The notes under the pieces are model-generated. The model worked only from the letters and a program-made list of their open reading frames with translations, was not told the DNA's origin and searched no databases. Both the position numbers and the translations under genes were made by a program. DNA of 64,000 nt from Bythopirellula sp. (lineage in GTDB: Bacteria > Planctomycetota > Planctomycetia > Pirellulales > Lacipirellulaceae). The stretch covers positions 1,440,001-1,504,000 of the forward strand of contig OZ244170.1 of assembly GCA_965216565.1 (NCBI GenBank), given 5' to 3'. Positions 9,740 to 29,962 of this stretch are shown one piece after another. Within the stretch, counting starts at the first letter, position 1. The number at the start of each line of letters is the position of its first letter.

Positions 9740-11071
9740 CTAGCGGATGGACTGATCGCGACGGGCCGACGAGCGTTTCGCTAGGGCGAATCGCTCGGCA
9801 TTTCGCTTTGCCGTACCTACTGACTGACCGATAGCGACGAACTGAGCTGTCATTTCCTTTACGAGATCCCTGGCATTCAAGTCGGGCATCAAAGCTCGCT
9901 CTGGCTGGGCAGAGAATTTGGGATCACGAGGCTTGGCGAGTTCTGCCAAGTGTCGCTGCTCCTGCTTCTGTACTGCCAGAAACCAATCAGGAGGAGTCCG
10001 CTGTCCACGGCTGGCTGCTTTGAGATTATCAATCAAGAACGCTGCAGCACTACGCTTGAAGAATCCTTTTTTCTTCTGCTCTATCGCTGCCAAAGCGACG
10101 TCGCACCAAACGCGAACTAGCTTCTGGTCAAACGTCTTGAGCACCCAGCGGATACTCTGCTCGTCTAGTCCTAATCGTGTCAGTGGTTCTGTGAGGGGTG
10201 AACGCACCCGCCCGACTCCCCGGATCGCTTGGTTAAACCGGGAGCCGCGATCGAATTGAAAATAGCCGCCGTCTCTTCGTTTACCAAACCTAGGCATTCC
10301 GTTGAGATACCCTTGCTTCATCAATACCGAACTACAGCGTTCGATCTTTGCTTTCAATTTGCTCGTCGGCTGCTCAGCTGAGAATCCCAAGGTAGCGACT
10401 GCCAGCTGACGGATGCCAAACCGAGGCGATTGTTTGCGACGGTAGAACACCTTCTGAAGCAATAGGAAGAGTCGCCGGGTTGCCGGATCCAGGCTGCGAT
10501 ACAGCCCAAGGTCGAAACGCAGCGCACCTCCCGTAGCTTGGCAGAACTCGAACAGCTGAGCGTCCCATACAATCCGCCACTCACGATTAGATCCCTCGTC
10601 GAGTGGCAAGCTGTAACCAAGCAGCCCAAATCGAACCTGGCGATGTTCCTGGCGTATTGGGTCGTAAAACAGATCATTTTCGTAATGAATACCTGCAAGA
10701 CGTCTGAGGGCTTCGCGAAAGAGTCGATAGGACTTTCCGCCCTTCGATTGAGGAGCAACGATTCCCAGCTGGCTCAAACAGTAATGAGGAGTGGCGTAAA
10801 ACTCGGATGATGGCTCTGGCTGAGCAAACGTCAGGGCGAGTAAGCCCCAAAGGTAGAATTCGTCGCAGGCTGAGAGGCCATCTGGGCAAGTCACTCGCAC
10901 TCGGGCCGTCTGCCGTTCGCCATTCTTTCCTGTGCAACGATAGGATGTTTCGTGGCAAAAGCCTGCTCGTAGGGAGGATTTTGAATCCAGTGGACACAAG
11001 GCGTGCTCAACTAGCGTGAGCTGGGTTAAACCAAGGGTCGGTGAGATTTTTCTTTGCTGGTGCGGTTTCAT
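9740..11071 (-). CDS. Putative replication initiator protein (RepA/TrfA-like, winged helix)
   Basis: DEFYLWGLLAL, FYATPHYCLSQLG, GGKSYRLFREALRRL, YRSLDPATRRLFLLLQK resemble plasmid initiators; divergent from parAB; start uncertain (ORF open to 11236). Confidence 0.7.
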   Translation of the reverse strand: MKPHQQRKISPTLGLTQLTLVEHALCPLDSKSSLRAGFCHETSYRCTGKNGERQTARVRVTCPDGLSACDEFYLWGLLALTFAQPEPSSEFYATPHYCLSQLGIVAPQSKGGKSYRLFREALRRLAGIHYENDLFYDPIRQEHRQVRFGLLGYSLPLDEGSNREWRIVWDAQLFEFCQATGGALRFDLGLYRSLDPATRRLFLLLQKVFYRRKQSPRFGIRQLAVATLGFSAEQPTSKLKAKIERCSSVLMKQGYLNGMPRFGKRRDGGYFQFDRGSRFNQAIRGVGRVRSPLTEPLTRLGLDEQSIRWVLKTFDQKLVRVWCDVALAAIEQKKKGFFKRSAAAFLIDNLKAASRGQRTPPDWFLAVQKQEQRHLAELAKPRDPKFSAQPERALMPDLNARDLVKEMTAQFVAIGQSVGTAKRNAERFALAKRSSARRDQSIR

Positions 11072-11202
11072 AACTGGCAACATCAGCCGTACCACGTCCG
11101 ACGGATTTACGAAACAAACAACTGCCGCAGCGACGAAAAAGATTGTCAGAATCTCTGCAAATGTGGCAACGTATCGGTAAGCGTTTCGAGAACTTGGCGC
11201 TG

Positions 11203-11219
11203 AATTGCCACTGGCAATT
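11203..11219. promoter_or_regulatory. Perfect palindrome AATTGCCA-C-TGGCAATT in the rep/parA divergent gap (parS/operator candidate)
   Basis: 8+1+8 palindrome about 28 bp upstream of the parA ATG; further TGGCAA half-sites at about 11075 and 11164. Confidence 0.55.
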
Positions 11220-11246
11220 TGGCGATCGCGTACCACCAGGAGGCAG

Positions 11247-12050
11247 ATGACTTCGACGCTATGCTTGATTAACCAGAAGGGAGGCTGTGGGAAAAGCTCG
11301 ACTTGTTTTCACTTGGGTGGTCAACTCGCAGCTGACGGGGACCGTGTGCTGCTGGTGGACGCTGACCCACAAGGATCGCTGAGCCAAGCATTCTTTGGTT
11401 CCGAGCGTATCGAGAGGCTCTCCTCCAGTGAAACGACCGCCGCTCTATTTCGGACTCCAGGCACGATCGACGCCCGTGCCTTAATTGCGGTTGCCCCGTT
11501 TGAAGACCTTGACATCGTTCGGGCCAACCAACTTCTTGCTCCTCACAATTCGCCCGAGCCAGAGACACTCGGACTTGGCCAGTACGCATTCGCATCGTTT
11601 ATCGAACAAATCACTGGCTATGACTGGATCCTGTTCGATTGCCCACCCAACCTGTACGGTTGCACTTGGAACGCCCTGTTGGCGTCTGACTACGTGCTAA
11701 TCCCGGTGCCACCTGAAGATTTTGGTACACAGGGCCTGAGAGCAGTCCACCAGGCGGTTGAGTCTGCTCGGCAGCTCAATTCGAGGTTACGCCAACTTGG
11801 ACACGTGATCACCAGACGTGATAGCAGGCTGTTAGTGCATCGAGCTTACGAAGAGAAGTTGCGTTCGGTTCACGCAGATGTCTTGAGAACCACAGTCCCC
11901 GAAGCTGCAGCCTTCAAAGTAGCCCTGACTTGTCGCCAACCAGTTGTCGTTGCGAATCCTCTCTCGAAAGCAGCTCAGAGCATCGTCTCTCTAGCAGCAG
12001 AGATTCGTAGTAGCATCGAGTACCACCAGCAAGCCCAAGGTGTTGCCTAA
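11247..12050 (+). CDS. parA: ParA family partition ATPase
   Basis: Deviant Walker A NQKGGCGKSS, LLVDADPQG, ILFDCPP; AGGAGG RBS. Confidence 0.95.
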   Translation: MTSTLCLINQKGGCGKSSTCFHLGGQLAADGDRVLLVDADPQGSLSQAFFGSERIERLSSSETTAALFRTPGTIDARALIAVAPFEDLDIVRANQLLAPHNSPEPETLGLGQYAFASFIEQITGYDWILFDCPPNLYGCTWNALLASDYVLIPVPPEDFGTQGLRAVHQAVESARQLNSRLRQLGHVITRRDSRLLVHRAYEEKLRSVHADVLRTTVPEAAAFKVALTCRQPVVVANPLSKAAQSIVSLAAEIRSSIEYHQQAQGVA

Positions 12051-12955
12051 TGAAGACGACCCAGCAAATGCTCGCAACCGCCGATGATCACTTGGCAGAG
12101 TCGATAGGGAAGCGGAACGCACAAACAGAGATACAACTTGCCCCGAAGCCCGTTGAGGCTGACATCGGACGGCTACCTGCTCCAGAGTTTGGTCGAATCG
12201 AGGTGAGTCGATTACAGCCAGATCCTAGCCAGCCACGTCTTCACTTCGATGCAGAGGCTATCGAGCGTCTAGCGGCAAGCCTCAAGAGCGCTGGCCAACT
12301 CGCCCCGATCCGTGCTCGCTGGTCAAATTCGCATAAAAAATGGCTGATCGTTGCCGGGGAACGTCGCTGGCGGGCAGCTCAACACGCCGGTCTTGATACC
12401 GTCGATTGCTTTTTCTACCAAGCACCTCTCGACGAGGGTGAAATCCTTCGCCTTCAACTTGTCGAGAACCTTCTTCGCGAGAACCTCAAGCCAATTGAAG
12501 AGGCTCGCGGCTTCCGCAGGCTCATGCAGCAGCAAGGATATACCGGCAAACAAGTGGCTGAAGAGCTTTCAGTTCCAGAATCAAAGGTCAGCCGTTCACT
12601 GGCTTTGCTAAGACTGCCTGAGGACATTCAGCAGCAGGTTGACGAAGGCAAGCTGGCTCCGCGTGTTGCCTACGAACTCACCAAGGTGGCGTCCCAGGGT
12701 AACCAGCAAAAGTTGGCAGCACTTGCAGTGTCTGGAAAAATCGGAATTAAGGACATCTGTGGATCCACACTCTCCAAGAAGAAACGCAGCTTGAGTCGCA
12801 AACGTGGGGTTCGGCTGATTTTCCCGCTCGATGATGGTTGGAATGTCACCGTATCGCGGCGGCGAAAGGGCAACTACCACGAAGTCGAGCAAGCACTAGT
12901 CGACGCCCTCGAAGACGTCCGCACACGCATTCGAGGCGGCGTGCAACTCTTCTGA
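12050..12955 (+). CDS. parB: ParB/RepB/Spo0J partition protein
   Basis: QPR...GQLAPI...IVAGERRWRAA...ENLLRENL, then HTH; TAATG overlap with parA. Confidence 0.95.
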   Translation: MKTTQQMLATADDHLAESIGKRNAQTEIQLAPKPVEADIGRLPAPEFGRIEVSRLQPDPSQPRLHFDAEAIERLAASLKSAGQLAPIRARWSNSHKKWLIVAGERRWRAAQHAGLDTVDCFFYQAPLDEGEILRLQLVENLLRENLKPIEEARGFRRLMQQQGYTGKQVAEELSVPESKVSRSLALLRLPEDIQQQVDEGKLAPRVAYELTKVASQGNQQKLAALAVSGKIGIKDICGSTLSKKKRSLSRKRGVRLIFPLDDGWNVTVSRRRKGNYHEVEQALVDALEDVRTRIRGGVQLF

Positions 12956-14010: not shown

Positions 14011-14075
14011 GAAATCGACTGGATCGATCAGCATAGTGTACGTAAGATCAGTACACCACGGCCCCGGAGACAGCG

Positions 14076-15738: not shown

Positions 15739-17094
15739 TCACGGACTCAGCAGTCCTTTTTCTACCATCAGTTCTCCGAAGGTGTTCAGCAGACGTTGCG
15801 TTTTGCGAGCTAGCGGCATGTTGTTGTCGTGAATGTGGCCGCCAATGTAGTTTGGGAAGGGCCCGTTAGGACGGTCGTTCTTCCGGCCACCACCTACGAA
15901 GAACAGTCGCTGAAAACTCATGCTATCGTCGTCGAGTACCGCTATAGACCTGAGGCCGCTGAGAGACAGGGGCTGCTTTTCTTCCAGGTAGGTCCATTTT
16001 CCGTTCACAAGTTGCTTATGCCCATCAGAAATAAAAGGTACAAGCACGCTACGGATCTCTGGCAAGGCAGCTTGAAATGCAAGTTCTAGTTTAGCCTTCT
16101 CTCTGGCTGCGGCAATCTGATCGGCCAAAGCAATCTGTTCGGCTTTAAGGCCTGCCAGTTCTGCCTTCTTTCGCTCAGCCTCGACCTTGTCACGCTCAAG
16201 ACGCTTCTGGGTTTCGAGTTCTTGCAATTCAATCTGCGACGCCGCTTCCTGTTCGGCGAGCGCCGCCTCGCTGGCCTTGACCTCAGCTGCGATCTGCTCG
16301 GCTCTTTGGCGTAGCTGCAAAGCCCTTAGTCTCTCGATTGCCTCCCTTAGCGAGCTTTCTGCCGGAGCACGCGACTTTGCTTCTTCAGCAAGCAGCCGAA
16401 CCAGTGCATTGTCTTCCTTCCACTGTCGCAGCCCTAATTCCAATTGCGAGCGGATACCGTTGAGCTGCTTCGTGAACCCGCTGTCGATTTCAAGTGTCGC
16501 CAATTCATCGGCGGCAGCTTGTTCGACCGGTTTGGCGATTGTCAGCAGGGACTGTCGTAAGCTAGCCGTCTTCGCAGGAGAGAGGCGGTCCCGATCGATA
16601 GCTGCTGCGAACAACTCCACTGCTTTCTCATCGGCCGCTATGCGGTGGCCAACTTCCCCTGTCTCCACAGAGGTCACAAACTCGTCCCACCGCTTTTGCT
16701 CTTTGGTAAGGCGACCAAGCAAGTCTTGGGATGTTCGGATATCGGACTGGGCTTCGAGTACCGATGCGCGCCGAACCGCGTCGCTGGTGGAAATGACATT
16801 GGTCGGCCGAGTTCGAGCAGCTGACTTGGGCTCGCCAACGTTGCGGGCGGCTTGTTCGGCAGGAGAATCTTTGCTTGCCTCTGATATCAAATCATTCTGC
16901 AGGGCTTGTGTGGTCAGCTGCTTTACACCCAGGGCGATCAAAACGACGCCACCCATGATTATGCCAATCACCCGCAGTGTTCTCATCCATGAAGGAGCAG
17001 CTCTGCCTGTGGCAGCGTTCTCAGTAGACGCAGCGTCCCATGGATCTTTGTCGGATTCGTCCGCTGAGGTGCTTTCAGAGCCAGTTTCATTCAT
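15739..17094 (-). CDS. Single-TM coiled-coil hypothetical protein
   Basis: TM VIGIIMGGVVLIALGV; long A/E/Q/K/L-rich heptad region; globular C-terminus. Confidence 0.8.
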   Translation of the reverse strand: MNETGSESTSADESDKDPWDAASTENAATGRAAPSWMRTLRVIGIIMGGVVLIALGVKQLTTQALQNDLISEASKDSPAEQAARNVGEPKSAARTRPTNVISTSDAVRRASVLEAQSDIRTSQDLLGRLTKEQKRWDEFVTSVETGEVGHRIAADEKAVELFAAAIDRDRLSPAKTASLRQSLLTIAKPVEQAAADELATLEIDSGFTKQLNGIRSQLELGLRQWKEDNALVRLLAEEAKSRAPAESSLREAIERLRALQLRQRAEQIAAEVKASEAALAEQEAASQIELQELETQKRLERDKVEAERKKAELAGLKAEQIALADQIAAAREKAKLELAFQAALPEIRSVLVPFISDGHKQLVNGKWTYLEEKQPLSLSGLRSIAVLDDDSMSFQRLFFVGGGRKNDRPNGPFPNYIGGHIHDNNMPLARKTQRLLNTFGELMVEKGLLSP

Positions 17095-17118: not shown

Positions 17119-18624
17119 TTAATTCTTCGAAAGGCTAAACAGGGGACCAGGCAGCCACGAATCAGCGAACCGCAGCAGTGGCCGACAGAGGCAGGAGGCA
17201 CCAAGCCCAATCCAGAGTGCCAAAGTCGCCCCACCAGCGAACGCCGTCGCTGCAAGGGCCCATCCGCACCAGAGAAACACCATCGCTGCGAGGCCAGCTG
17301 CCAAGTAAGTTGGCGTAGCTCTCACACGGTAGAAGCTAGCGGCACTGCGTAGTGCCGATTGGGTGTACCACAGCGAAAACGCAATACAGATGCAACCCAA
17401 TAGGGTAAACGCCCAGCTGCCAAATGCCCCTAAGCCGATCGCTACAACTCCGCCGCCACCAAGCCGACCTGCCAAGTTCATGGCCGTGCGGTGCGACTTG
17501 GAAAACCGACTAATTTCTTGCTGACGTGTCTCCTGGGTTTGGACGTCGCTCCGCCGGGCTTCTTCTTGACGCGTCTCTTCTTCGCCCCAACCGGTGAGCA
17601 CAAACTTATCAATTACGATTGCCGGGTCGTAAACTGTTCGTATTAGACGCTCCTTGACGAATTCCTTGAGCCAGACACGGTCTTTGAATTTCTGCTCAAT
17701 CACATCTTCACGAAACTGCTCGCCGGTTACGACGTACGCCTCATCCGCCAGCCAAGCAGGAATCTTCTCGATAATGGGCTGTACGTCTTTGGGAACCGCT
17801 ACGCTGTCAGCCGGAAGGATGACTTTCTCTGCTTTCATCAAGTGGTGCTCGTGTCGCCAGCGTGACTTGACCTCTTTCTCTTCAATTTCGCTGGTACGCA
17901 CTTCTTCGACTTCCCAGATGTCTTGCACTGCATCAACATTTTGCCAGTTACTCTGAACTGATGAAGATGGATTAGACTTGCGATGATAAACAGAGTTCTC
18001 TTTGAAGAAATGGAATTTACATACGCTTTCCGACGTCCATTCGATCAATCCAAAGATGGACCGATCAACAAGGCGGTCCAATGCCTCGAACGTCGATTGA
18101 ATGACTCGGTGCGTAGTCTGACGAATCGACCTGTCTAGGCTCTGATAGACCTCGCCAATCGGCTTTGCGATCAATTCGGCCGACAAGACACTGTCCGGCT
18201 TGAAGCCGTTGAACGCGGCCTGCTCGAATCGTGATTTGACTAGCATCGATTCGATTTGCTTACGACGAGGATCGTCTTGGCCGAAACCCTTGAGGGTTAC
18301 CGATAGCGTCTGCTGGCAAACTTCCCAGAGCAAGTCGGAGACTTCCTGGTGACGTAACTCCAGAAGCCGCAAATTGTCTTCATAACCGTAGACGAGGTCT
18401 TCAATGACTTCAAAGTTACTTAGCTTACGCTTGGTCCAAGGCAGTGTTTCCAAAAGCCGCTCGACAATCTTGCTGTTTCGTGATTTTTCAATCTCAAGCA
18501 GAGGGTTTTCACTCTGCGGTCGGATACGTCTGGGAAACGTCCTACCGCTAATACGTATGCTGTATGAGGGGACGCCGCTTGACGAATGCACGGGGGCCGG
18601 ATTCTTACTCGCTGGAGCTACCAT
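17119..18624 (-). CDS. Hypothetical protein with C-terminal four-helix membrane domain
   Basis: 501 aa, soluble N-terminal part and about 4 hydrophobic segments at the C-terminus; 24 bp upstream of the coiled-coil gene. Confidence 0.8.
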   Translation of the reverse strand: MVAPASKNPAPVHSSSGVPSYSIRISGRTFPRRIRPQSENPLLEIEKSRNSKIVERLLETLPWTKRKLSNFEVIEDLVYGYEDNLRLLELRHQEVSDLLWEVCQQTLSVTLKGFGQDDPRRKQIESMLVKSRFEQAAFNGFKPDSVLSAELIAKPIGEVYQSLDRSIRQTTHRVIQSTFEALDRLVDRSIFGLIEWTSESVCKFHFFKENSVYHRKSNPSSSVQSNWQNVDAVQDIWEVEEVRTSEIEEKEVKSRWRHEHHLMKAEKVILPADSVAVPKDVQPIIEKIPAWLADEAYVVTGEQFREDVIEQKFKDRVWLKEFVKERLIRTVYDPAIVIDKFVLTGWGEEETRQEEARRSDVQTQETRQQEISRFSKSHRTAMNLAGRLGGGGVVAIGLGAFGSWAFTLLGCICIAFSLWYTQSALRSAASFYRVRATPTYLAAGLAAMVFLWCGWALAATAFAGGATLALWIGLGASCLCRPLLRFADSWLPGPLFSLSKN

Positions 18625-18754: not shown

Positions 18755-19771
18755 TTGAGTCGAGACGACGAGAAGACAATTCGCTACCGAGGCCGCACGC
18801 TGCAAGTCCAGCAAACACTGCGAATAGCTGGTCGAAAGTACATGGTGATCGCTCGCTTGGCGGGCAATCGAAGCACTCAGACAGCTCTGCCGACACGCAG
18901 CCGCCTCCAGGTTTTTGATCCTCCCGCGCAGGCGCTCCGTGTTGTCCACGAACTTCCCGATGGCCCAAACGCTCGACAGGCGATTGCAAGCCTACGTCGA
19001 CTCGACCGGCAAGGCACCTGTGCACCGACCTTGATTGATTGTCAGCTCAGTCAGGGCCAATGGAAACTGCTGACCACATGGGTCGAAGGGGAGACTCTTG
19101 CTGTCTACCTAAATGCAGCCCGTGATGGAAAGAAGCCTTGGCCTTCCGTTTATGAAACCGTCAGGATGTACCGTCAGTTTGTGCATAGCCTGTGTCAGTT
19201 CCACCAGTTTACTGGCCGCCTACATGGGGATATTTCGCCAGCCAATCTCATCGTCCAGGCTCAGCCGCATGCACTTAGGCTGATCGACTTTGGCAGCGCT
19301 TGGCCGATGTCAGATTCTGAGGCAAAGCATCAGGGGGAAGGAGCAACTCCAGGCTACTCCGCGCCCGAAAGACTTACTCCTGCCATAGCTAACCACTTGG
19401 CCGACCAGTTCTCTGCAAGCATTGTTCTCTACGAGATGCTAACAGGCCAGCTTCCCTACGAAGGAATGGGAGGTAGGGCAGGCGAACCAGAGTATCGCGA
19501 CACGTTTGCGGATGCTTATAAGCCCCCGAGCCACTTGGCTGCCAAACTCGGGGACTGCCCTCAGCAAGCATGGGCCTTGATTGACGCTCTCGCTCGCGAA
19601 GGGCTTCGACTGCTATCTGAAGAGCGATACCAGAACAGCGGTCAGTGGCGCCAGGCAGCCGATGCTGCGTGGGAGCAGGTCAGACTGCCCAGCAGTCTCA
19701 GCGTAACCGGCCGGATCGGCGAAGCCGTGGCGAACTGGATAGAACGAATGACAAAGGGCAAAGAGAGCTGA
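18755..19771 (+). CDS. Ser/Thr protein kinase (Hanks type, atypical N-lobe)
   Basis: LHGDISPANL, LIDFG, GATPGYSAPE, ADQFS...YEMLTGQLPY; no clear Gly-loop or VAIK lysine. Confidence 0.85.
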   Translation: MSRDDEKTIRYRGRTLQVQQTLRIAGRKYMVIARLAGNRSTQTALPTRSRLQVFDPPAQALRVVHELPDGPNARQAIASLRRLDRQGTCAPTLIDCQLSQGQWKLLTTWVEGETLAVYLNAARDGKKPWPSVYETVRMYRQFVHSLCQFHQFTGRLHGDISPANLIVQAQPHALRLIDFGSAWPMSDSEAKHQGEGATPGYSAPERLTPAIANHLADQFSASIVLYEMLTGQLPYEGMGGRAGEPEYRDTFADAYKPPSHLAAKLGDCPQQAWALIDALAREGLRLLSEERYQNSGQWRQAADAAWEQVRLPSSLSVTGRIGEAVANWIERMTKGKES

Positions 19772-19801
19772 CTGGAATGATTAGGCCGAAGGGTAGTGTG
19801 A

Positions 19802-20836
19802 TCACTTGATTCCAAGAGCGATGGCTGATCTATGTGGCGGCGTGGCTCGGAACCGGTCGCCACAAACACAGTGATAGTGCTTCCCTCTCGACTTTTCTAG
19901 GAACGGAGGCTGATCTTCGCTTCGCTGTGGAATCTCTTGATAGACCTGCATAGCTCCGTTGGGACAGCCGCGGCAGATGCTCTCGTCCGCAGGCGGCTCC
20001 GGTTGCAGCCCGCCTTTCAAGTTCGGTAAGAGCCGCCGCATCCCAGCAGCACCATCAGCTAGCGCACGATGTGCAGCGCCAGAGTTTGGAATTGCAACGG
20101 CATCTTGCGTTTTGGCATAGAGAATGACTCCGAAAGGACTCTCACCCCCAGCCTGCCTTTGCAGTAACTGGCAATACGCAGCCATGCGTGCGAAGTGCTG
20201 CTTGTGAAGCTTGCGATTGTCGCTGTTTCTAAGAAAGACTGGTACGTAGGTTTCTCCGCGCACCAACACGCGCCACGGTCGCCCAGCCAATTTCCATTCG
20301 GAATCTTCCAGTGGGTCAGGCCAAATGCGCAACTCAAAGCCGGCCGCAATAAGTCCCCACCAATCAGCAGCTGTGGGGTTGTCACCATCAAATTTGGGCT
20401 CTTTGGGTTTTGCACCGGCTGCTCGCGAGTGCCGGTGCGTCAACACAACCAACGCCCAGCAACCTGTGGCGACGCCAACAACCAGTACGAGCAACAGCAG
20501 CCAGCACCCAATCAGAAACGTCGGTGAGACCGTAAGCGTCAATATGCCGCATAAACCAATCGATAGTAAGCCGCCAACAACGCCACCAATCAGATACATC
20601 GTGATGCGTCCAATCGCCTCAGCAATCCTTGCTTGGTCGTAGCGAGGCAAATAGCCAAGCCGGATAGGTCGCGTGTCTTGCCCGCGATCACTTTCTTCCG
20701 ACTCGTGCGCTATCACCCCGGCCCGCGGGCAGAACAAGAACTCGGTGATGACGTGGACGCCTAGCGGATCGTCATGTCCGCTGGCAACCAGCCTCCGGTC
20801 CTCGTTGCCAGCTCGATTCGAAGCCTCACTATCCAT
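19802..20836 (-). CDS. Cas4/RecB-like Fe-S nuclease-fold protein with a 2-TM insertion and degenerate active site
   Basis: ITEFLFCPR, LAGRPW, YVPVFLR, HFARMAAYCQLL, FGVILY, ICRGCP...HCVCG; two hydrophobic helices after the N-terminal motif; start overlaps the upstream stop. Confidence 0.65.
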   Translation of the reverse strand: MDSEASNRAGNEDRRLVASGHDDPLGVHVITEFLFCPRAGVIAHESEESDRGQDTRPIRLGYLPRYDQARIAEAIGRITMYLIGGVVGGLLSIGLCGILTLTVSPTFLIGCWLLLLVLVVGVATGCWALVVLTHRHSRAAGAKPKEPKFDGDNPTAADWWGLIAAGFELRIWPDPLEDSEWKLAGRPWRVLVRGETYVPVFLRNSDNRKLHKQHFARMAAYCQLLQRQAGGESPFGVILYAKTQDAVAIPNSGAAHRALADGAAGMRRLLPNLKGGLQPEPPADESICRGCPNGAMQVYQEIPQRSEDQPPFLEKSRGKHYHCVCGDRFRATPPHRSAIALGIK

Positions 20837-21941
20837 CGTTGCCCTCCATTCCCAATGAATGCTGCCACTGGTTAAGGACAGGCAACACTTCACCAAAGGT
20901 TGAAGGCCTCTGACTCTGGCGAAGGGCAGTGCTAGTAATAATTAACTCGCGAACAGCCTTTGGTAACTGTACACCCATTGCATCACCCTCTTTCCCTCTC
21001 TCTGGTAGCTTTCCGACCACTAGCTGTGAAATGATACGTCCCCAGCTGTAGACGTCTGCAGCAGCAGTCGGCTCACCTGCCCCAATCTCGGGTGCCCGAT
21101 ATGGATCGTCAGGCCAGTGGGATGAAACGGTAGGCAAATTTCCCGACAGTTTCGCTAGCTCAAAGTCGGTCAGCATAAGCAGATCGTCTGAGGCTCGTAC
21201 TAGAAGGTTTCTTGGGCTTAGTTCGCGGCGGATCACGCTCGCTTCGTGAATGGCTGACAAAGCTTTGGCCAACTGCATAGCCCAGCAGGCCGTAGTGTGT
21301 AATGGAACGGGACCTTCGATTTCCAAGAGCCACTCGGCCAAAGAGCTTCCATCCACCCATTCATCGACAACCCACCAAGCATCTCCAGACGATTCAGGAA
21401 AAGTCGCATAGCAAATCGGAAAATGCTCGTGACGGATGAGCAAGTCGCAGATCTCGATATGTCGCACAAGCCGACTCTTAAGCTGGTGTTGGGCTTCGTC
21501 CGATAAGTGAGCAAACTCGTAACGTTTACCTCGTCCAAATCGGGATGGCTGATGCCGATGCTTCATTCGGAAGACTCGGTACTGCAACCCATTAGAAGTG
21601 TTTTGCACGTTTGTTAATGGGCGACCGGCTATCCATTCGCTCGATGAAGGCTCCGTTTCGGAATCATCGCAGTCCGAAACCTTGTTAGCTTCTGTGTCTT
21701 CGTACTCGACTGGATCCACCAAGTCGATCATCGCGACTCCTAGTTCGTGGGCGATGGGTCGCAGCGTAGAGACACGCGAGGGACCACCACTCAAGAGCCG
21801 TCTCGCAGTTGCTTTGGTGATGTCGGTCTGACGGCAGAAATCTTCGACGGTCCATTCCTTTGCGAGCAGGCATTTCTTAAGCGTCGGCACGCAGATGAGC
21901 AGCTTGCCTTTCTCAAATTGTGACTTCTTGGACTCGTCCAT
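20829..21941 (-). CDS. XRE-HTH fused to a Ser/Thr kinase-like domain (probable pseudokinase)
   Basis: N-terminal WTVEDFCRQTDITKATARRLLSG...TLRPIAHELGV; kinase motifs VIRRELSPRN, LTDFE, YRAPE, ADVYSWG; GAGGAG RBS. Confidence 0.85.
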   Translation of the reverse strand: MDESKKSQFEKGKLLICVPTLKKCLLAKEWTVEDFCRQTDITKATARRLLSGGPSRVSTLRPIAHELGVAMIDLVDPVEYEDTEANKVSDCDDSETEPSSSEWIAGRPLTNVQNTSNGLQYRVFRMKHRHQPSRFGRGKRYEFAHLSDEAQHQLKSRLVRHIEICDLLIRHEHFPICYATFPESSGDAWWVVDEWVDGSSLAEWLLEIEGPVPLHTTACWAMQLAKALSAIHEASVIRRELSPRNLLVRASDDLLMLTDFELAKLSGNLPTVSSHWPDDPYRAPEIGAGEPTAAADVYSWGRIISQLVVGKLPERGKEGDAMGVQLPKAVRELIITSTALRQSQRPSTFGEVLPVLNQWQHSLGMEGNDG

Positions 21942-22155
21942 TGCTAGCTCCTCGGCCGCGAGCGCTACCTGCTCTTAGTGATCTGAAATGATACCCAAAC
22001 AGCTCCCCTAACAAATCCTGGATTCGTCGAAACTGGGCTTTGTCACTGCCGGACTCTGTCGAGCCAAGTGGCACCACACTGTTTGCCGCGTTCTGCATTG
22101 TAATCCGCGACATTCGATCCGTCAGTTCCACCAATGTTTGATGAGGAGCCACCTC

Positions 22156-22524
22156 ATGCTTACGTCATTACTTCAGTCTTTCGTATCAGCCGTCATCGAG
22201 CGTTTAGCCGCCTCTACCATTGGTGGAGTCGCCGCTCAATCAGCTGCCGAAGCGGCGATCCAAGAGGCCGACTGCCTGGATCGCCTCGAAGAAGCGGCAC
22301 GAAGCTACGAAGCAGCCGGTAAGCCTCAACTTGCCGCCAGGCTCCGTGAGCGAGCCGCATCAGTCACCTTCGACACGTCGACCGCGATCCCTTCCTTGGA
22401 GCATCAAACCAAGCAGACCGCGTTAATCGACGCGAAAGCGAAGCCAGACGAAGAGAGCCGCTCCTCGGCATCACCGAAACGACGGCGTCGCCGATCGGCC
22501 GCTTCGAAGGGAGCCGAGCAATGA
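22156..22524 (+). CDS. Hypothetical helical protein, first gene of the putative transfer operon
   Basis: GAGGAG RBS; ATGA overlap with the next gene. Confidence 0.7.
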   Translation: MLTSLLQSFVSAVIERLAASTIGGVAAQSAAEAAIQEADCLDRLEEAARSYEAAGKPQLAARLRERAASVTFDTSTAIPSLEHQTKQTALIDAKAKPDEESRSSASPKRRRRRSAASKGAEQ

Positions 22525-23165
22525 CCGGAAGGCGCTTTCTGCAAGAACTCGTTCTGCAGTGGCTGGCTTACCAGCTCCGGGTGGCAACGATGTCCCAACT
22601 GGCCGCTGCCTTGACGATCGAGCTGGGCATGACCGCTGCGGCGGTCAAACGCAATCTGTTGTACCTGGCGCGGTGTGGCTTGCTAGGGAAACAAGTTCTC
22701 CCTGTGGCTGTTCCCGAGTTGACGGAGCCGCTATTGGCTTGGTCACCAGGGCAGACGGTACCCGATTTCGAAGCCGTCGCCTGGGCGGCACGTAAACGGA
22801 TTGCTCTCGCAGTCCAGCGGCGTGAGACCATTCTTTGGGCAAGCGACCTCGCTACTCGTCGAGTGGGTGGAATGGGTGGGCAACTCCGCAAGCCTCTACA
22901 AGTCGAGCACGACTTGGGAGTCGCAGCAATCTACTTTGCTCGCTACCAAAAAACTGTCGGCACGACTGAGAGTTGGATTGGCGAAGACGCGTACGCCCGA
23001 CTGCGGCGACCGGGGCGAGGACAGAAGCGACCTGATGCCGCGATTGTCGATAGGGAGGGCCATATCGCCAAGGTACTCGACTACCTGTCGCTCTATCCGC
23101 CCGCTCACTTACGCGGATTCCATCACTATTGGGCCGCCCGAAATACTCGCTACGAATGGTGGTAA
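22521..23165 (+). CDS. Replication-relaxation (MOBC-like, PD-(D/E)XK) family protein
   Basis: wHTH-like N-terminus, QVEHDLGV, WIGED, KRPDAAIV, VLDY; upstream of a T4CP. Confidence 0.55.
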   Translation: MTGRRFLQELVLQWLAYQLRVATMSQLAAALTIELGMTAAAVKRNLLYLARCGLLGKQVLPVAVPELTEPLLAWSPGQTVPDFEAVAWAARKRIALAVQRRETILWASDLATRRVGGMGGQLRKPLQVEHDLGVAAIYFARYQKTVGTTESWIGEDAYARLRRPGRGQKRPDAAIVDREGHIAKVLDYLSLYPPAHLRGFHHYWAARNTRYEWW

Positions 23166-23169
23166 ACCA

Positions 23170-23949
23170 ATGTCGAAAAGACCTAAAAAACCGCGGCTTA
23201 CCCGGCGCGACCTGGACGTGTTGCGAGACGCGGCAACCTTTGGACTCATCGTTCCAGAGTTGATTGCGCCGTATCGGTTTGCTGGCAAAGCGCCGGCGGC
23301 TGTGACCTCGACGCTTCGGCGACTTTATGGCCGACCCCCCAGCTATCTCTACCTCCGTCCTGAGCCGCTTGACGATCGCCGTGTGTATTACCGACTCACC
23401 CCCCGGGGTGCTCGCGTTGCGGAGGCTTCGCGGTCGGCCACATTGCGACTTGGTAAGCAGTCACTGCTCAGACGCTACGCCTTGGCTTGGCTGATCTGTG
23501 TGCATGAGCCCCATAGGCGTGTGCTACTTGATCGCGATGACGCCATGCAGCTTCTTGCGAATGCCAGCAACCTGCCGAAACACGGATTCTACCTGCGTAA
23601 GCAGGAGCAAACCGGACCTCGACTTGGCTTAGCAATTGTCGATCACGGCGCCCATCCGTCTAGGATCGTTCGCAAGGTTATCCGTACTGCTGAGCGCCTG
23701 CTCAGCAATGCATCCTCTAGAGACTTGATTGCAGCAGATCGCATGACCATCACGCTACTCACCTTTAACGAGCTGAAGCGTGAAGAGCTACACAAGTCGA
23801 TTCGACGCCGGATGTCGCGACAGTTGCCCGCCCTGTTGTGTCAGTACGGACTTTCCCCGAATGTCACGAACCGTCTACAGCTGGAGGCACATGTTGTCCC
23901 TGGCCTGCTGAATTTGATTCCCCATGACCGACCAGGAGGCACGCAATGA
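23170..23949 (+). CDS. Winged-helix protein, Replic-Relax-like N-terminus
   Basis: LTRRDLDVL...STLRRL...YYRLTPRG; ATG 4 nt after the previous stop; ATGA overlap with the T4CP gene. Confidence 0.6.
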   Translation: MSKRPKKPRLTRRDLDVLRDAATFGLIVPELIAPYRFAGKAPAAVTSTLRRLYGRPPSYLYLRPEPLDDRRVYYRLTPRGARVAEASRSATLRLGKQSLLRRYALAWLICVHEPHRRVLLDRDDAMQLLANASNLPKHGFYLRKQEQTGPRLGLAIVDHGAHPSRIVRKVIRTAERLLSNASSRDLIAADRMTITLLTFNELKREELHKSIRRRMSRQLPALLCQYGLSPNVTNRLQLEAHVVPGLLNLIPHDRPGGTQ

Positions 23950-26753
23950 CACAAGCAACAACCGCTGCACCGCAACCTCATGCCGTAAAAGACAAATACG
24001 ATGTGCTGGAGTGGGATGATTTGCCCGCAGACGAGTGCGATATGAACTACCGCTTGCTGAATATGGAGAAACCAGCCTACGGGATGAGAGTTGTTGAGCT
24101 GATACTGAGCAGCGTCTTGGCCGCGATCGCCTACTTGCTACTGGCTTGGTTTTTCGAAAGCTTCCCCGGTTTACTGGCAGGTGGAATACCAAGAGTTTTC
24201 CTAATTGCAATTGCGCTGGGCGCGTTTTCAGTTCTGCGAGACAACTCGCCAGCTGGGAAGCGGAGGGCTATTCGCTTATCAGGAGGCGTCTTAGGCGGTG
24301 GTGTCCTGCTAGGGCTTGCTGCCGGAGGATTGACACTGCCCCAGTACTTGATGCTGCTGATATTGGGCATCATCGTCTGTCTTGCCTCGGTTGCCGATGC
24401 AATTGCGACATCGAACGCTTGGTGGTGCTCTGCCCACCCACTCGTAACTCAATCGGCAATGAACGCCTATCGAGAGGCATGGGTAGGACGGTGGAGCGGA
24501 AAACCACTCCGCATCGATGACACAGCGTCAGCAGAGACACGGCGAAACGTTGCCCGAGCCCGGGTCGTTCACCTGCTGACGCACTACCGAACCGGCATGC
24601 TCTGGTTAGTAGGGAGTGTCATCGGTGGAGGGTTTGTTGGGCTCTTAACCTCGGACTGGGAGCCTGGCCCGCTCGTGGTAGCGCCCGTGCTCCTGCAAGT
24701 AACGTTCGTCCTTGCTGTTGTCGCAATCCATCGCTTGATCGCGGCATGCGAACAGCTACAAACAGCGCATCCGAAAGAGAATATAACGCTTTACCAGATT
24801 TTTAGATTTGCATTTCTTAGTGTGCTAAGAGCGATCCATTGCCATGCAACCTATGGAAACGTACTTCGCCAACCACTCTGGGTGCTTAAACTACGCGGCG
24901 CGGCTTGGGTGCGTTACTTGCATGTGCCGCTAGCGTGCTGTCTGCTCGCCTACCTCTCAGCCGCCTGTGCAATCCGAGAGGCGTGGCCAGATGGGGCAAA
25001 TCCTGCCGTGGTCTTAGCTCTTCAGCTTGCCATGGCATTGCTACCGGTAACTTGGATTGCATCGGGCATCGTGATCGTTGCTGGCCCAACAATACTCGCC
25101 CATCGGCTAGCTCTCGAGATCCCTGATGCCTTCGAGCACCAATACGACTACTCCGACTGGGACGGGTACGTCGCCCGCTTGCACGACAGTCGCAACCCGC
25201 TGGAGCGTCAATCTGTTTGGGTTGGCTGCCATCTCCAGCATGGCTATCCGATTCTGGTCGATCGCTCTCTCTATTTCGAGCACGCGCACGTTGTTGGCAG
25301 TGCAGGCAGTGGCAAGACTGCACTCAGCTTGACGTCTGACATTACACAACTTATCCGTAGCAGTCGGAGCGAAGACCCGGCAGGCGGAATCGTCATTCTA
25401 GACTGCAAAGGAGACCCAGCACTTCTGCATACGGCTCGCGAAGAAGCTCTTGCAGCTGGTAGAAAGTTCAGGCTGTTCACGAATCAGCCGGGAAGACCAT
25501 CGCATGGCTTCAATCCACTCCTCAATTGTGGAGCTACCAAGCTCTCGCTTTCAGAAATAGTCGGTGTTATCGCCCAGGCACTCAATTTGTATCACGGCGA
25601 AGGCTATGGACGAGGATTCTTCGGCGCAGCCTCCAAAGCGTTGCTGCAAGCGGCCTACAAAACGTCTTTCACGTTCGGAGATTCTGGAATGCTGAGGCCT
25701 CCGATCGAGTCTTTTCAGCAGCTTGAAGAAGCGTTACGTGAAACGGCTAGCGACCCAAAAGTGTTTCAAGCTGCTCAGCAGTTGCTCTACGTCGTAGCTG
25801 CGCTGACCGAGTTCGACCAAATCAATCTTACTCCTGACCGTGAACTAGCCCCCGAAGTCTTGGAAGAATCAATCCATATGCCTCGTCTAGTCCGCGACGG
25901 GGAAGTGGCTTACTTCTATCTAGTAGGCATGGTCGACCGCTCGTCAGTCGGCCACATTGCTCGGCTGGTGCTCTATTCAACACTAGCCGCAGCGGTGGAA
26001 CATCGCAATAAGACGGGGAACGGAGCAGGAGTCTTCTTTTTTGCAGACGAAGCTCAGTGCCTAATCTCCAACAATGTTGCACCGCTATTAGAGCAAGCTC
26101 GCTCATACGGTGTGGGATGTGTTCTCGCCCATCAGAACATGAGCCAACTGGAACAAGCCGATGGCAAGGGTCTGCTGGAGCTTGTACTCGCCAATACGGT
26201 GTTCAAACGTTACCACGCTCTTCGTGACCCAGAGTCGCAGAAGTACGTTGCCGCAGCCTCTGGCAAATCAAACTACTTTGACCTGAGCTGGGACCAACTG
26301 AAAAGGCGGGCGATTGGACGCGGCCAGGTCGATCCGCGTTTCGCATGCACTGGGCCCGACAGTGTAATGCGGGTAGGTGTGACACAACGAGTCGGCGAGC
26401 GCATCGAAATAGAAGAGCTGGCCGATATGAGCCGTCGCCTCAACCAGAGTGTCGTTTTGGTAGAGCGTAACCAGGGGCTGACGCAACTCAACGGCGGTGT
26501 GTTAATGCATTCCGACTGGCCCATATCACAGAATACTTACAAGCGACGCGAAACGACACCGTGGCCAACCGACATGCCCGGGGCCATCGTATGCGAGCGC
26601 GGCGTACCACGCGAATTGCCAGCAGCGTCGCCACCGGTCAACAGTGACGACTTAGATGATCGCCTGCGAGAAATCGAAGAAAAAAAGACTCGCAACGACA
26701 AGAAGCCTCCTCGACGAGACCAAGAAAACAACACCGAAAGTGACCCCAAATAG
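23946..26753 (+). CDS. Type IV coupling protein (VirD4/TraD-like ATPase) with extended multi-TM N-terminus
   Basis: HAHVVGSAGSGKT (Walker A), ILDCKGD, FNPL, FFADEAQ (Walker B), QARSYG...AHQNMSQL; AGGAGG RBS. Confidence 0.9.
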   Translation: MTQATTAAPQPHAVKDKYDVLEWDDLPADECDMNYRLLNMEKPAYGMRVVELILSSVLAAIAYLLLAWFFESFPGLLAGGIPRVFLIAIALGAFSVLRDNSPAGKRRAIRLSGGVLGGGVLLGLAAGGLTLPQYLMLLILGIIVCLASVADAIATSNAWWCSAHPLVTQSAMNAYREAWVGRWSGKPLRIDDTASAETRRNVARARVVHLLTHYRTGMLWLVGSVIGGGFVGLLTSDWEPGPLVVAPVLLQVTFVLAVVAIHRLIAACEQLQTAHPKENITLYQIFRFAFLSVLRAIHCHATYGNVLRQPLWVLKLRGAAWVRYLHVPLACCLLAYLSAACAIREAWPDGANPAVVLALQLAMALLPVTWIASGIVIVAGPTILAHRLALEIPDAFEHQYDYSDWDGYVARLHDSRNPLERQSVWVGCHLQHGYPILVDRSLYFEHAHVVGSAGSGKTALSLTSDITQLIRSSRSEDPAGGIVILDCKGDPALLHTAREEALAAGRKFRLFTNQPGRPSHGFNPLLNCGATKLSLSEIVGVIAQALNLYHGEGYGRGFFGAASKALLQAAYKTSFTFGDSGMLRPPIESFQQLEEALRETASDPKVFQAAQQLLYVVAALTEFDQINLTPDRELAPEVLEESIHMPRLVRDGEVAYFYLVGMVDRSSVGHIARLVLYSTLAAAVEHRNKTGNGAGVFFFADEAQCLISNNVAPLLEQARSYGVGCVLAHQNMSQLEQADGKGLLELVLANTVFKRYHALRDPESQKYVAAASGKSNYFDLSWDQLKRRAIGRGQVDPRFACTGPDSVMRVGVTQRVGERIEIEELADMSRRLNQSVVLVERNQGLTQLNGGVLMHSDWPISQNTYKRRETTPWPTDMPGAIVCERGVPRELPAASPPVNSDDLDDRLREIEEKKTRNDKKPPRRDQENNTESDPK

Positions 26754-27732: not shown

Positions 27733-27816
27733 GTTCTTTCACATTGTTTTTTGGTCGTCGGAGAAGCTTTTCGCTTCTCCGGCGGCCCCTTTTGCACTAC
27801 CTGGAAAGGGTCATCG

Positions 27817-28836
27817 ATGCCAAGTGAACCTCAAGAATTGGTTGTTCTGTCCGAAGCATCGCGTGCGATTGCTAGCGTTCGCACCATCGATGAAGCGAAA
27901 GACCTCCGAGACAAGGCGGAAGCCGTCAAAGCTTACGCACGCAAGGCGAGACTAGGCCGCGAGATCCTTGTTGAGGCTTCCGTTGTCAGGGCACGTGCCG
28001 AGCGACGACTGGGTGAGATGCTTCAAGAGACACCTCTGGCGTCTGCTGCACCCGGCAATCAATACACGGGGCCGAAGGAGCCCTCTAACGAGTCAGCCTA
28101 TACGCTTGAAAGCTTGGGGCTCTCGAAGAACGACTCCTCACGTCTGCAACGGATCGCAGAAATGCCAAAGGATGTATTCGAGCAACACGTTTCCCAGTCG
28201 GCTGAGCAAGAGCGAGAGATCACAATGGCCAGCCTGCTTCGATTGGCCAAACAGCATGAACCCATCGGGTCAACCGTAGTTGCCAACGGCGGCAGTCCAG
28301 CAAGATCTTGTGGCTCGCTGACGCAACTCGTCGAACTTGGTGAGTCTTTTTCGACCATCTACGCCGATCCGCCATGGCCTTACAACAACCAGGCTACTCG
28401 GGGAGCAACATCAAACCACTATCCGTCGATGTCGATTGACGACATCTGCGCCGAGCCCGTCCAGCAATTGGCCGCTGCTGACGCTCACCTACATCTATGG
28501 ACAACCAACGCGTTTTTGCTCGAAGCGTTCGATGTCTTGGAAGCGTGGGGCTTCGAGTACAAGTCATGCTTCATTTGGATCAAACCACAGATGGGGCTAG
28601 GTAATTATTGGCGATTGTCGCACGAGTTTTTGCTTTTTGGAATTCGAGGAAGCCTCAAATTTGCCAACAAGGGCCAGAAAAGCTGGTTGAGCGCCAAGCG
28701 AGCACAGCACAGTCGCAAGCCTGAGGCGGTTAGGCAGCTGGTTGAGTTGGTTAGCCCACCGAGCTACCTCGAAATGTACGGGAGGCAGCTTCCTTTGAAT
28801 CCAGATTGGACGGTCTATGGCAACCAACTCCCCTAG
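27817..28836 (+). CDS. MT-A70 family adenine methyltransferase (orphan)
   Basis: FSTIYADPPW, LHLWTTN, AWGFEYK, WIK, HEFLLFG, HSRKP, LEMYGR; phage-type N-terminal domain RARAERRLGEML. Confidence 0.93.
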   Translation: MPSEPQELVVLSEASRAIASVRTIDEAKDLRDKAEAVKAYARKARLGREILVEASVVRARAERRLGEMLQETPLASAAPGNQYTGPKEPSNESAYTLESLGLSKNDSSRLQRIAEMPKDVFEQHVSQSAEQEREITMASLLRLAKQHEPIGSTVVANGGSPARSCGSLTQLVELGESFSTIYADPPWPYNNQATRGATSNHYPSMSIDDICAEPVQQLAAADAHLHLWTTNAFLLEAFDVLEAWGFEYKSCFIWIKPQMGLGNYWRLSHEFLLFGIRGSLKFANKGQKSWLSAKRAQHSRKPEAVRQLVELVSPPSYLEMYGRQLPLNPDWTVYGNQLP

Positions 28837-29214: not shown

Positions 29215-29241
29215 TCCAATCTTTACTACATGGAGAATCTC

Positions 29242-29478
29242 ATGGCGAAACAACCAACTCATGAAGTCCGCTTTGGATTGATCAAAGCAACCGTTTGGCA
29301 AAACCACACGAAAGTTGGTGACCGCTTCAACGTCACCATCTCCAGGCTTTATAGAAACGGCGACCGCTGGGTCGAGTCGCAGAATTTTGGGCGTGATGAC
29401 CTGCCACTGGTGGCCAAGGCGGTTGACCAAGCCCATACCTGGATCTTCGCACAGAACGGCGAAAGGAGTGAGCGATGA
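29242..29478 (+). CDS. Small hypothetical protein, putative ssDNA-binding (paralogue of 8306-8641)
   Basis: GGAG RBS; PTHEVRFGLIKATVWQN...NVTISRLYR...W..SQNFGRDDL. Confidence 0.8.
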   Translation: MAKQPTHEVRFGLIKATVWQNHTKVGDRFNVTISRLYRNGDRWVESQNFGRDDLPLVAKAVDQAHTWIFAQNGERSER

Positions 29479-29666
29479 GCAGCGAAGCGATAGAGATCGG
29501 CAATGAAGGCCGATTACGCCGGAGTTCTTCGGTTGACTACATCGCCGCCCGCTGGTGCACGCTCCCGCCGCATGTCCGCGAGACCATCATCACACTGGTC
29601 GATGCCAGTTTACTCGCAAGCCAACATCAGCACACTTCGGCGGTGAGCGAGGAAGACAATCCATGA
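29475..29666 (+). CDS. Small hypothetical protein
   Basis: AAGGAG RBS, ATGA overlaps on both sides, WxxLPxxVRxxIxxLV motif. Confidence 0.65.
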   Translation: MSSEAIEIGNEGRLRRSSSVDYIAARWCTLPPHVRETIITLVDASLLASQHQHTSAVSEEDNP

Positions 29667-29962
29667 ATCGACAACAACTATCACGCGAGACACCGCTTGT
29701 CTTCTCGGAGGTTCCCAATCGGCTGCCTAAACGACACGGCAAGAAGATTCACTATTCTACCGTGTACCGCTGGGCCACTAAAGGTGTCCGTGGTCGCGTG
29801 CTAGAGACTGTGCGAGTCGGTGGAGTCCGCTACACTACAGTTGAAGCATTAGAGCGTTTTCTCTCTGCTCCTACGCTAGTCAATCTTGAAGCACCCAAGT
29901 CAGCAACGCTCGATGACGAGCTGACAGCGATCCAACGCCAGTTGGACGATGCCGGTGTGTAG
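29663..29962 (+). CDS. DUF1580 / excisionase-like HTH protein
   Basis: KKIHYSTVYRWATKGVRGRVLETVRVGGVRYTTVEALERF. Confidence 0.85.
   Translation: MNRQQLSRETPLVFSEVPNRLPKRHGKKIHYSTVYRWATKGVRGRVLETVRVGGVRYTTVEALERFLSAPTLVNLEAPKSATLDDELTAIQRQLDDAGV

Follow-up and report, generated by a model that had tools for sequence, protein, structure and literature searches.

The stretch of DNA analysed here (the window) comprises 64,000 nt of the genome of Bythopirellula sp. (G000; contig OZ244170.1, positions 1,440,001-1,504,000 of the forward strand) and contains three adjoining genes, hereafter the trio, beside an operon of relaxase-like and coupling-protein genes. The trio encodes KinB, a kinase, Cas4L, a Cas4-like protein, and HTHK, a pseudokinase fused to an XRE-type helix-turn-helix (HTH) domain; RelxA and RelxB are the names used for the relaxase-like operon proteins. 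The three open reading frames (ORFs) were found where a first-pass annotation, made from the sequence alone, had placed them, and with the expected folds (Table 1). The translational coupling of HTHK to Cas4L claimed in that annotation is borne out, since the HTHK stop overlaps the Cas4L ATG by 8 nt in the window and the gap lies between -20 and +25 nt in 46 of the 54 co-directional trios with an in-frame ATG. Its claim that both genes converge on a second kinase stands as regards the arrangement (30 nt between the stops of Cas4L and KinB in the window, -25 to +60 nt in 53 of 63 relatives), but the second kinase is non-canonical, having no beta3 Lys.

Table 1. Features of the window, with positions counted from its first nucleotide.
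Feature	Position	Strand	Description
KinB	18755..19771	+	Atypical non-RD Hanks-type kinase; 338 aa, TTG start; Pkinase match E 3.5e-17
Cas4L	19802..20836	-	Cas4-fold pseudonuclease with hydrophobic helical hairpin; 344 aa
HTHK	20829..21941	-	XRE/Cro HTH fused to pseudokinase; 370 aa; HTH_26 PF13443 at 21-76, E 2e-5; Pkinase PF00069, E 7e-19
Intergenic region, HTHK / relaxase-like operon	21942..22155	.	Candidate operator/promoter; divergent position
Small helical protein	22156..22524	+	Basic tail; first transfer-operon gene in most relatives; no Pfam match; 25/29 long loci
RelxA	22521..23165	+	Winged HTH (wHTH) + PD-(D/E)xK, distantly like Replic_Relax/MobC relaxases; PF13814 E 0.064
RelxB	23170..23949 (start approximate)	+	wHTH; conserved RelxA partner
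Coupling protein (T4CP)	23946..26753	+	VirD4/TraD-like; N-terminal hydrophobic region; Walker A/B intact
Element protein	17119..18624	-	Unnamed family, hydrophobic C-terminus; divergent from KinB here; 11/29 long loci
Element protein	15739..17094	-	N-terminal hydrophobic stretch and coiled-coil-like body; 18/29 long loci
Replication initiator	9740..11236	-	RepA-like; weak PF10134
Partition genes	11205..12955	+	ParA + ParB
DNA methyltransferase	27751..28836	+	MT-A70 family; recurrent in the element family
DUF1580 HTH	29555..29962	+	Excisionase-like (putative role)

Relatives were collected by an HTHK-anchored scan of GTDB genomes, in which the best 80 of 125 loci were scored for adjacency (redundant loci kept in, denominators being the loci with room to score), and by a KinB-anchored metagenome scan (64 loci). 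The titles of the GTDB loci are almost all Planctomycetota, and a few short contigs with other taxon names may be binning errors. From 83 loci with all three genes, 67 non-redundant trios were obtained; the trees have 65 rows, two partial trios having been dropped, with branch supports from FastTree. Besides a paired alignment of 65 members for each protein, separate sets were aligned for HTHK (263 homologues; 115 of the 120 among the matches listed, five short sequences being left out), KinB (56 of 65 homologues) and Cas4L (68 of 72 homologues). A further set comprises 29 non-redundant long loci, each of at least 19 kb.

Catalytic residues of the three proteins

The model of HTHK (predicted local distance difference test, pLDDT, 88.8) has a kinase fold near PknB and Aurora A, with a template modelling (TM) score to PknB of 0.77-0.78 by target length. 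The beta3 Lys (K139) is retained, the HRD motif has become RRE (E240 in 63/65; Asp in 4/115), the alphaC Glu is an invariant His (H161) and DFG reads DFE (E261 in 115/115), and the catalytic-loop Asn of the window copy recurs in just 15 of 115 members. Comparison of the family thus shows that HTHK has lost its predicted catalytic residues throughout. In RD kinases the alphaC Arg, the HRD Arg and the DFG+5 Lys are the basic residues that hold the phospho-Thr. In HTHK, R160, R239 and K264 are invariant in the 65 paired and the 115 aligned members, and position 271 is Thr or Ser in all of them; in alignments with Staphylococcus aureus PknB, R160/H161 fall on the alphaC Arg-Glu, R239 on the HRD Arg, K264 on the DFG+5 Lys and position 271 in the activation-loop Thr cluster. 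Because a catalytically dead kinase here retains exactly the phospho-Thr pocket and is joined to an HTH, HTHK looks like a phospho-receiver.

Around the region upstream of HTHK (21900-22200), mean column identity to the closest relative is 92%. A promoter scan of the intergenic region gave one weak sigma70-like site, at chance level; the scan for promoters and terminators stayed at or below chance as a whole, and no terminator-like site was found between the convergent genes Cas4L and KinB. Motifs from Gibbs sampling surpass the shuffled background both upstream of HTHK (information 13.5 vs 9.9) and upstream of KinB (12.8 vs 9.5), and are to be taken as clade-level leads only, because kinship inflates the signal and the sites of the window itself fit poorly.

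Cas4L was modelled by AlphaFold2 from the 68 aligned homologues (pLDDT 93.8). Its best structural match is the Cas4 structure 7mi4 (VIA Z 14.6, root-mean-square deviation 3.4, 174 residues aligned), and the top three Foldseek matches are all Cas4 (E 8e-5), in agreement with the Cas4-like fold read from the sequence in the first-pass annotation. The two transmembrane segments proposed there correspond to a helical hairpin (68-102/107-141) inserted into the domain, and by hydropathy 40 of the 65 members have two segments and the other 25 a single long one, with mostly short loops. In sequence searches, the window copy has no Pfam match and just six of the 65 members touch Cas_Cas4 (E <= 0.1), NCBIfam and PADLOC give weak Cas4 matches, and the Cas4L profile found nothing among the Protein Data Bank (PDB) sequences. 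In the ESM Atlas, Cas4L falls in its own unnamed cluster of 324, beside DUF83 clusters of ~280 aa from Thermoplasmatota.

Four cysteines (C36, C288, C291 and C325) are conserved in 65/65 members, and in 67-68 of 68 in the larger set, at positions that match the Fe-S staple pattern of Cas4, the cluster being putative. Positions 188, 201 and 217 we take, from the Cas4 motifs and the sequence, to be those of the PD-(D/E)xK Asp and Glu and of the Gln of QxxxY. The first is W in 56, F in 4, R in 2, Y in 1 and K in 1 of the 65 members, with Asp in at most one; the second is F in 27, I in 26, W in 4, L in 4 and V in 3, with Glu in at most one; the third is R in 53 and K in 12. The window copy carries W188, F201 and R217, and the pattern is the same in the separate 68-member alignment, so that a family-wide loss of the presumed catalytic residues is shown by comparison for Cas4L as well. 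Conserved Arg/Lys residues (38, 189, 202, 217, 328) occupy the cleft in place of acids. Since the staple would link Cys36 to the C-terminal cysteines, both halves of the protein probably lie on the same side of the membrane, without an outside sensor domain.

Substitution ratios point to purifying selection on both coupled genes: against the closest relative (L064), the ratio of nonsynonymous to synonymous rates (dN/dS) comes to 0.067 in HTHK and 0.105 in Cas4L (codons 1-285), values that are only rough because dS is near 1.3.

In KinB, the early TTG start is supported by a conserved IRxRGR motif upstream of the first ATG. H157, D159, N164, D178 and G180 (HxD, catalytic-loop Asn and DFG) are invariant in 65/65 and 56/56 members, and the middle residue of HxD is Gly (51) or Ala (14 of 65), which makes the kinase non-RD. 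Position 62, aligned with the Lys of the PknB VAIK motif, is R in 46, F in 15, A in 2 and C in 1 of the 65 members, with a gap in the remaining one. Where the Gly-rich loop and beta2 lie, Arg48 (57/65) and Arg50 (49/65) are conserved; in the alignment Arg48 falls on the third loop Gly, the site of the catalytic Lys in WNK kinases. Catalytic activity of KinB appears plausible.

Linkage, co-inheritance and the neighbouring operon

Cas4L adjoins HTHK in 72 of 74 scorable GTDB loci (displaced in one, absent in one), and KinB is present in 52 of 59, as a convergent neighbour in 43 and elsewhere in the locus in nine. The metagenome scan returned the same gene order, and among the 67 non-redundant trios HTHK and Cas4L are adjacent in 64, while Cas4L and KinB are convergent neighbours in 56. 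The divergence of HTHK from the relaxase-like/T4CP operon, presented by the first-pass annotation as the position of a master regulator, is found in 40 of the 67 trios (one has another arrangement and 14 are unscorable) and is not fixed. The 29 long loci contain Cas4L in 28, T4CP in 28, RelxA in 27, KinB in 26, ParA in 15 and RepA in 14.

The trees of HTHK, Cas4L and KinB have 17-23 of 22-26 well-supported splits in common, with at most one hard conflict. Over 46 loci, the trio trees share 15-17 of 18-19 splits with those of T4CP and RelxA, with 0-1 conflicts, the comparison of HTHK with T4CP giving 17 of 19 and none. Because kin share history, such congruence means co-inheritance and not interaction. 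Comparison of loci thus shows the trio as a co-inherited core unit that stands almost always beside what is, by its genes, a conjugation operon.

The operon itself can change. In a sample of 401 Phycisphaerae genomes, from the class of the locus L117, strong Cas4L matches were found in three. In L117 the trio lies head-to-head with genes for TraF (S26), a DUF3363 relaxase, TraG, a TrbB-like ATPase, TrbE, TrbL, VirB8, TrbG, TrbI and an integrase; in L254 the facing genes encode a sigma factor (regions 2 and 4), TraF, DUF3363 and TraG, after which the contig ends; and the contig of L253 starts inside HTHK. The trio thus stays at the head of the transfer operon though the operon has been swapped for an unrelated one, which would point to a regulator of transfer rather than a machine part or cargo, and we regard this as the best argument that the trio regulates transfer.

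Several loci depart from the common layout. The sigma factor of L254 (11914-12585), ECF-like (extracytoplasmic function), stands between HTHK and TraF as the first transfer-operon gene. In one clade (L015:5593-7750; L069, L082, L085, L098, L103, L108, L120) one or two membrane-linked AAA+ (Clp-like) genes lie directly upstream of HTHK, and the N-terminus of Cas4L is longer. In L114 (9785-15185) the genes after HTHK lie on the opposite strand and encode ThiF (E1-like) and JAB proteins, a ubiquitin-like module inserted at the trio site in place of Cas4L and KinB. In the divergent copy of L061 (6411-10529) the three genes run in one direction; they are an ORF of 702 aa with an HTHK-like kinase domain at its end, a KinB-like gene and Cas4L, and EAD11, AAA and FGE-sulfatase genes are their neighbours. 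As to rejected candidates, weak matches to the Cas4L profile in 23 genomes of the Phycisphaerae class were left uncounted; both of those checked proved to be Cas4-Cas1 fusions.

Proposed role in transfer control and its alternatives

The reading that we prefer, to which we give about an even chance of being right, is that the trio forms a phosphorylation-based cassette for transfer control in integrated mobile elements of Planctomycetota. HTHK and Cas4L would be made together as a membrane-tethered unit, with Cas4L held in the inner membrane by its hairpin, no sensor domain reaching outside. Cas4L would bind, and not cut, single-stranded DNA (ssDNA) or a transfer protein, and would tether or present HTHK. 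KinB, expressed from its own promoter on the opposite strand, would phosphorylate HTHK at Thr271 (Ser273), and the pocket formed by R160, R239 and K264 would read the mark; the HTH would then alter its hold on the divergent promoter and so turn the relaxase/coupling-protein operon on or off. Transfer machinery or ssDNA at the membrane would be the likely signal, for instance from a helper element, a source proposed because most of the elements appear to have no mating pore of their own. Helper-activated islands offer a comparison for an element that borrows a pore.

A number of observations weigh against this reading. KinB may be inactive, because the beta3 Lys is never present (0/65 and 0/56) and the alphaC Glu, like the Gly-rich loop, is unconserved in the 65-member alignment. 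HTHK and Cas4L occur with KinB missing or fragmentary nearby in 7 of the 59 GTDB loci, one genome (G165) has three Cas4L copies and a single KinB, and L061 shows no transfer genes within ~10 kb. The operon faces KinB and not the HTH gene in 12 of the 67 trios, and Gibbs sampling of upstream regions established no operator in the window. The Trb-type swap is known from two metagenome-assembled genomes (L117, L254), and transfer by the main element family is itself presumed, RelxA being weakly matched to PF13814.

The trio could instead belong to the transfer machine, Cas4L being a membrane guide for ssDNA or a coupling-protein accessory in a pore-less or novel apparatus whose assembly, and not transcription, is controlled by the kinases. 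The fully read element around L077, whose predicted membrane proteins are T4CP and Cas4L only, would suit such a part, as would the failure of the VirB4 profile to match six element-bearing genomes, the basic cleft and the agreement of the Cas4L tree with that of T4CP; this role is nevertheless unlikely, given that L117 has a complete, unrelated Trb-type secretion system that should not need the trio as a part and that Cas4L is coupled to the HTH protein and not to the T4CP operon. An HTH protein paired with a kinase is also the grammar of toxin-antitoxin systems, with a logic like that of HipBA and HipBST. On this model KinB would be a toxic kinase checked by HTHK, an autoregulating antitoxin, and Cas4L would trigger it or block the entry of a second copy. 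The persistence of HTHK and Cas4L in several loci that have no KinB fits a dispensable toxin, and the KKP modules of mobile elements are reported to be tripartite toxin-antitoxin systems (10.1101/2022.09.05.506569). However, KinB lies on the opposite strand and not behind the presumed antitoxin, three KinB copies (L183, L187, L188) have no Cas4L or HTHK within 1.7-5.4 kb downstream, though insertions of that size occur, and addiction gives no need for the trio to keep its place heading the transfer operons; a maintenance or exclusion role is accordingly improbable in our view.

Defence against phages or plasmids, in which Cas4L would sense foreign DNA and activate KinB for abortive infection under regulation by HTHK, corresponds to the other half of the first-pass proposal of a transfer switch or abortive defence, and the two halves fared differently: co-inheritance with T4CP and RelxA, and the position facing an unrelated operon in two genomes, favour transfer, while defence is disfavoured, because the trio behaves as backbone and not as exchangeable cargo, its trees being congruent with that of T4CP. 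Defence cargo is not usually confined to one element family, as the trio is, and no intact effector nuclease is encoded. The combination of a PD-(D/E)xK fold, a pseudokinase, a kinase and an HTH does echo PglW (PMC12839542; PMC4365076). Each of the 65 HTHK members finds its top NCBIfam match in MAD6, the MADS kinase (best E 2e-33). In two PglW-like proteins the profiles part, that of HTHK favouring the first kinase domain and that of KinB the second. Yet the window HTHK reaches about 88.7-88.8 bits against a cut-off of 460 for MAD6, and scores on the PglW profile are 24.9-26.5 bits against 990. In a control, more than 20 ordinary host kinases outscored the PglW-like domains on the HTHK profile, so that descent of the trio from PglW or MAD6 is unsupported and the resemblance is an analogy only. 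PADLOC, run on 11 window genes, gave generic ATPase and aminotransferase matches and no BREX or MADS partners, none of which occurs among the recurrent neighbour clusters scanned either, and a defensive function is quite improbable. The expectation of the first-pass annotation that no described system would match agrees with PADLOC and NCBIfam, which give no system-level or above-cut-off match for the trio.

It is very unlikely that both kinase domains are dead and that the trio is a scaffold controlled by nucleotides or by a host kinase, with HTHK phosphorylated by the latter or never. The missing beta3 Lys, alphaC Glu and Gly-rich loop of KinB would allow it, and the host encodes many other kinases, of which more than 20 score on both profiles; but the HxD, Asn and DFG residues of KinB stay invariant at ~30% identity, which is hard to explain without metal-dependent chemistry, and Arg48 occupies the catalytic-Lys position of WNK kinases. 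As for simple decay of cargo genes, all three proteins are without canonical residues and one same-genus copy is cut inside Cas4L and has no KinB. The family-wide alignments refute it all the same, identical substitutions being fixed across families at 25-40% identity, and we give it next to no probability. The altered residues noted in the first-pass annotation thus recur throughout the family: orthologues share the motifs and the neighbourhood, and dN/dS (0.07-0.11) speaks against decay.

Transfer control by phosphorylation finds its closest working analogue, as an analogy, in KKP (PfkA-PfkB-PfpC), a module of the Pf6 prophage and other mobile elements in which three genes, two of them for kinases, control the element by phosphorylation (10.1101/2022.09.05.506569). 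KKP includes a PP2C-type phosphatase and has neither HTH-pseudokinase nor Cas4 protein, whereas the trio has a pseudokinase fused to an HTH as its second kinase and a Cas4-fold membrane protein as its third product, on an element that is conjugative or mobilisable. No phosphatase family was recognised among the window genes or the 19 recurrent neighbour clusters scanned, several small conserved genes of which have no Pfam match. PglW (type 2 BREX) and MAD6 (MADS) likewise use a nuclease fold, a pseudokinase, a kinase and an HTH together, but as a single NERD-pseudokinase-kinase polypeptide in methylation-based defence, and not as three genes with a dead membrane Cas4 (PMC12839542; PMC4365076). 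With the Cas4 family (MGE-Cas4, solo-Cas4), Cas4L shares the fold, the four-Cys Fe-S staple and the location on mobile elements (PMC5704561); that survey finds the catalytic motifs conserved, which is read there as a sign of activity in all members, and a text search of it has no hit for 'kinase' or 'Planctomyc', while Cas4L is dead by its sequence and carries a hydrophobic hairpin. ACE1 is placed with the Cas4 family among the closest known systems (PMC12094033).

Searches of the open-licence literature, in main texts without supplements or subscription papers, turned up no account of the trio module or its element family; the supplementary tables of PMC5704561 and PMC12839542, outside that search, could list such loci. 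Horizontal transfer is known to be controlled by repressor proteolysis, quorum sensing and activators, and ImmR/ImmA and SetR/SetCD are transfer regulators of integrative and conjugative elements (ICEs) encoded beside the transfer genes; we know of no ICE transfer regulator that uses a pseudokinase phospho-receiver or a membrane pseudonuclease. TraR of the Tn4371-family ICEs is a further conserved regulator with a fixed place beside transfer genes (PMC11448139), but these regulators are LysR activators (TraR type) or depend on proteolysis of an XRE repressor.

A bolder reading, possible but doubtful, is that the trio represents a new class of signalling system, in which a membrane-tethered Fe-S Cas4 pseudonuclease senses ssDNA or transfer machinery at the membrane and licenses a Lys-less kinase to phosphorylate an HTH-pseudokinase, a transcription factor that is a phospho-Thr receiver in one protein, in a cassette portable between unrelated conjugation systems that marks an undescribed, phylum-wide family of integrative elements, maybe moving without a canonical mating pore. 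A relay of Ser/Thr phosphorylation that ends in a dedicated pseudokinase-HTH receiver would add a new regulatory logic to transfer control. It would supply the first function for a lineage of dead Cas4 proteins bound to the membrane (412 clusters at 50% identity; E <= 0.001), and KinB would be a test case for catalysis without the beta3 lysine.

The host element

Judged by gene content, the trio is a core part of integrase-bearing elements of Planctomycetota, and the comparison outlines what seems to be the principal family of integrative elements in Planctomycetia, for which genetic tools are scarce. Because a complete cultured-isolate chromosome (L077) carries the element, its integrase, RepA/ParAB and transfer genes are testable in cultured strains. 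Its distribution is patchy (6/120 genomes in the family, 18/401 in the order and 4/401 in the phylum sample, one of these a weak match), and a genome sometimes holds 2-3 copies. Relatives of the trio were absent from the viral contigs, phage records and plasmid records searched, HTHK meeting only generic kinases, below 35% identity, in the plasmid records.

In the window T4CP, the TrwB_AAD_bind, T4SS-DNA_transf and TraG-D_C profiles all score above cut-off, and 11 of 30 RelxA copies match PF13814, three of them over the cut-off. The RelxA-RelxB pair, single in the window, is often doubled and then flanks T4CP on both sides (e.g. L077:4177-9233). The VirB4 profile (PF19044) found no match in G000 (94% complete) or in five other element-bearing genomes, all six Planctomycetia genomes being negative, and PF12846 gave only short weak matches, away from the elements, in the genomes tested. 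Most elements thus appear to be without a mating pore of their own, although a very divergent one is possible. The streptococcal IME_Class_8 combines a MobC relaxase (PF13814), a VirD4 coupling protein and an integrase with no type IV secretion system (T4SS) (PMC5357655). The host element resembles it in its PF13814-like gene, VirD4-like coupling protein, integrase and undetected VirB4. Unlike that class, it is larger, encodes RepA/ParAB and the trio, has two relaxase-like genes, often in duplicate, and uses Tyr or Ser integrases at several tRNAs.

Tyr integrases are found in 22 element loci and Ser integrases in 12, where they adjoin tRNA-Met, -Pro, -Ala, -Ser or -Arg genes. No tRNA gene lies inside the window; beyond it, a Tyr integrase of G000 (1512293-1513687) abuts a tRNA-Met gene (the pair spans 1512293-1513774), a 21-22 bp piece of which recurs at 1411445 and 1387269. 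These repeats suggest an island of ~102 kb that holds the window, including 42 kb between DUF1580 and the integrase as candidate cargo, with a 24 kb island in tandem. The end at 1411445 is supported by L064, which runs from its cut Cas4L to sequence that matches G000 up to exactly this position. As to excision, contigs from four runs of one sample (X1-X4) gave just loose ends at the tRNA end and no informative joint. The 24 kb island (G000:C1 1387269-1411445, left of the window), with the same tRNA-Met repeat, carries genes resembling ParA, RepA and g5177, together with a type I restriction-like subunit and a cluster for an ABC exporter, and no kinase trio. In L211 (796-5179), an array of 33 tRNA genes adjoins the serine integrase end of the element, near phage-like genes.

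Further genes of the window recur in relatives. A 227-aa protein with no Pfam family (5177-5860, - strand) marks the far element end in 10 of the 29 long loci, is also found beside the trio in L117, L253 and L254, and has three more paralogues in G000. Two small proteins (29230-29478 and 8279-8641) belong to one unnamed family with 1-3 copies per element in 24 of the 29 long loci and four further copies in G000; they may, as a guess, be ssDNA-binding proteins. Genes for a DUF6879-like membrane protein and for a class V aminotransferase-like protein (13129-15407, + strand) form a pair that is also found after ParB in L013, L056, L098, L218 and L221, which is unexpected in the backbone of a mobile element. 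At the left end of the element core lies an IS4-family transposase (3036-4460, - strand).

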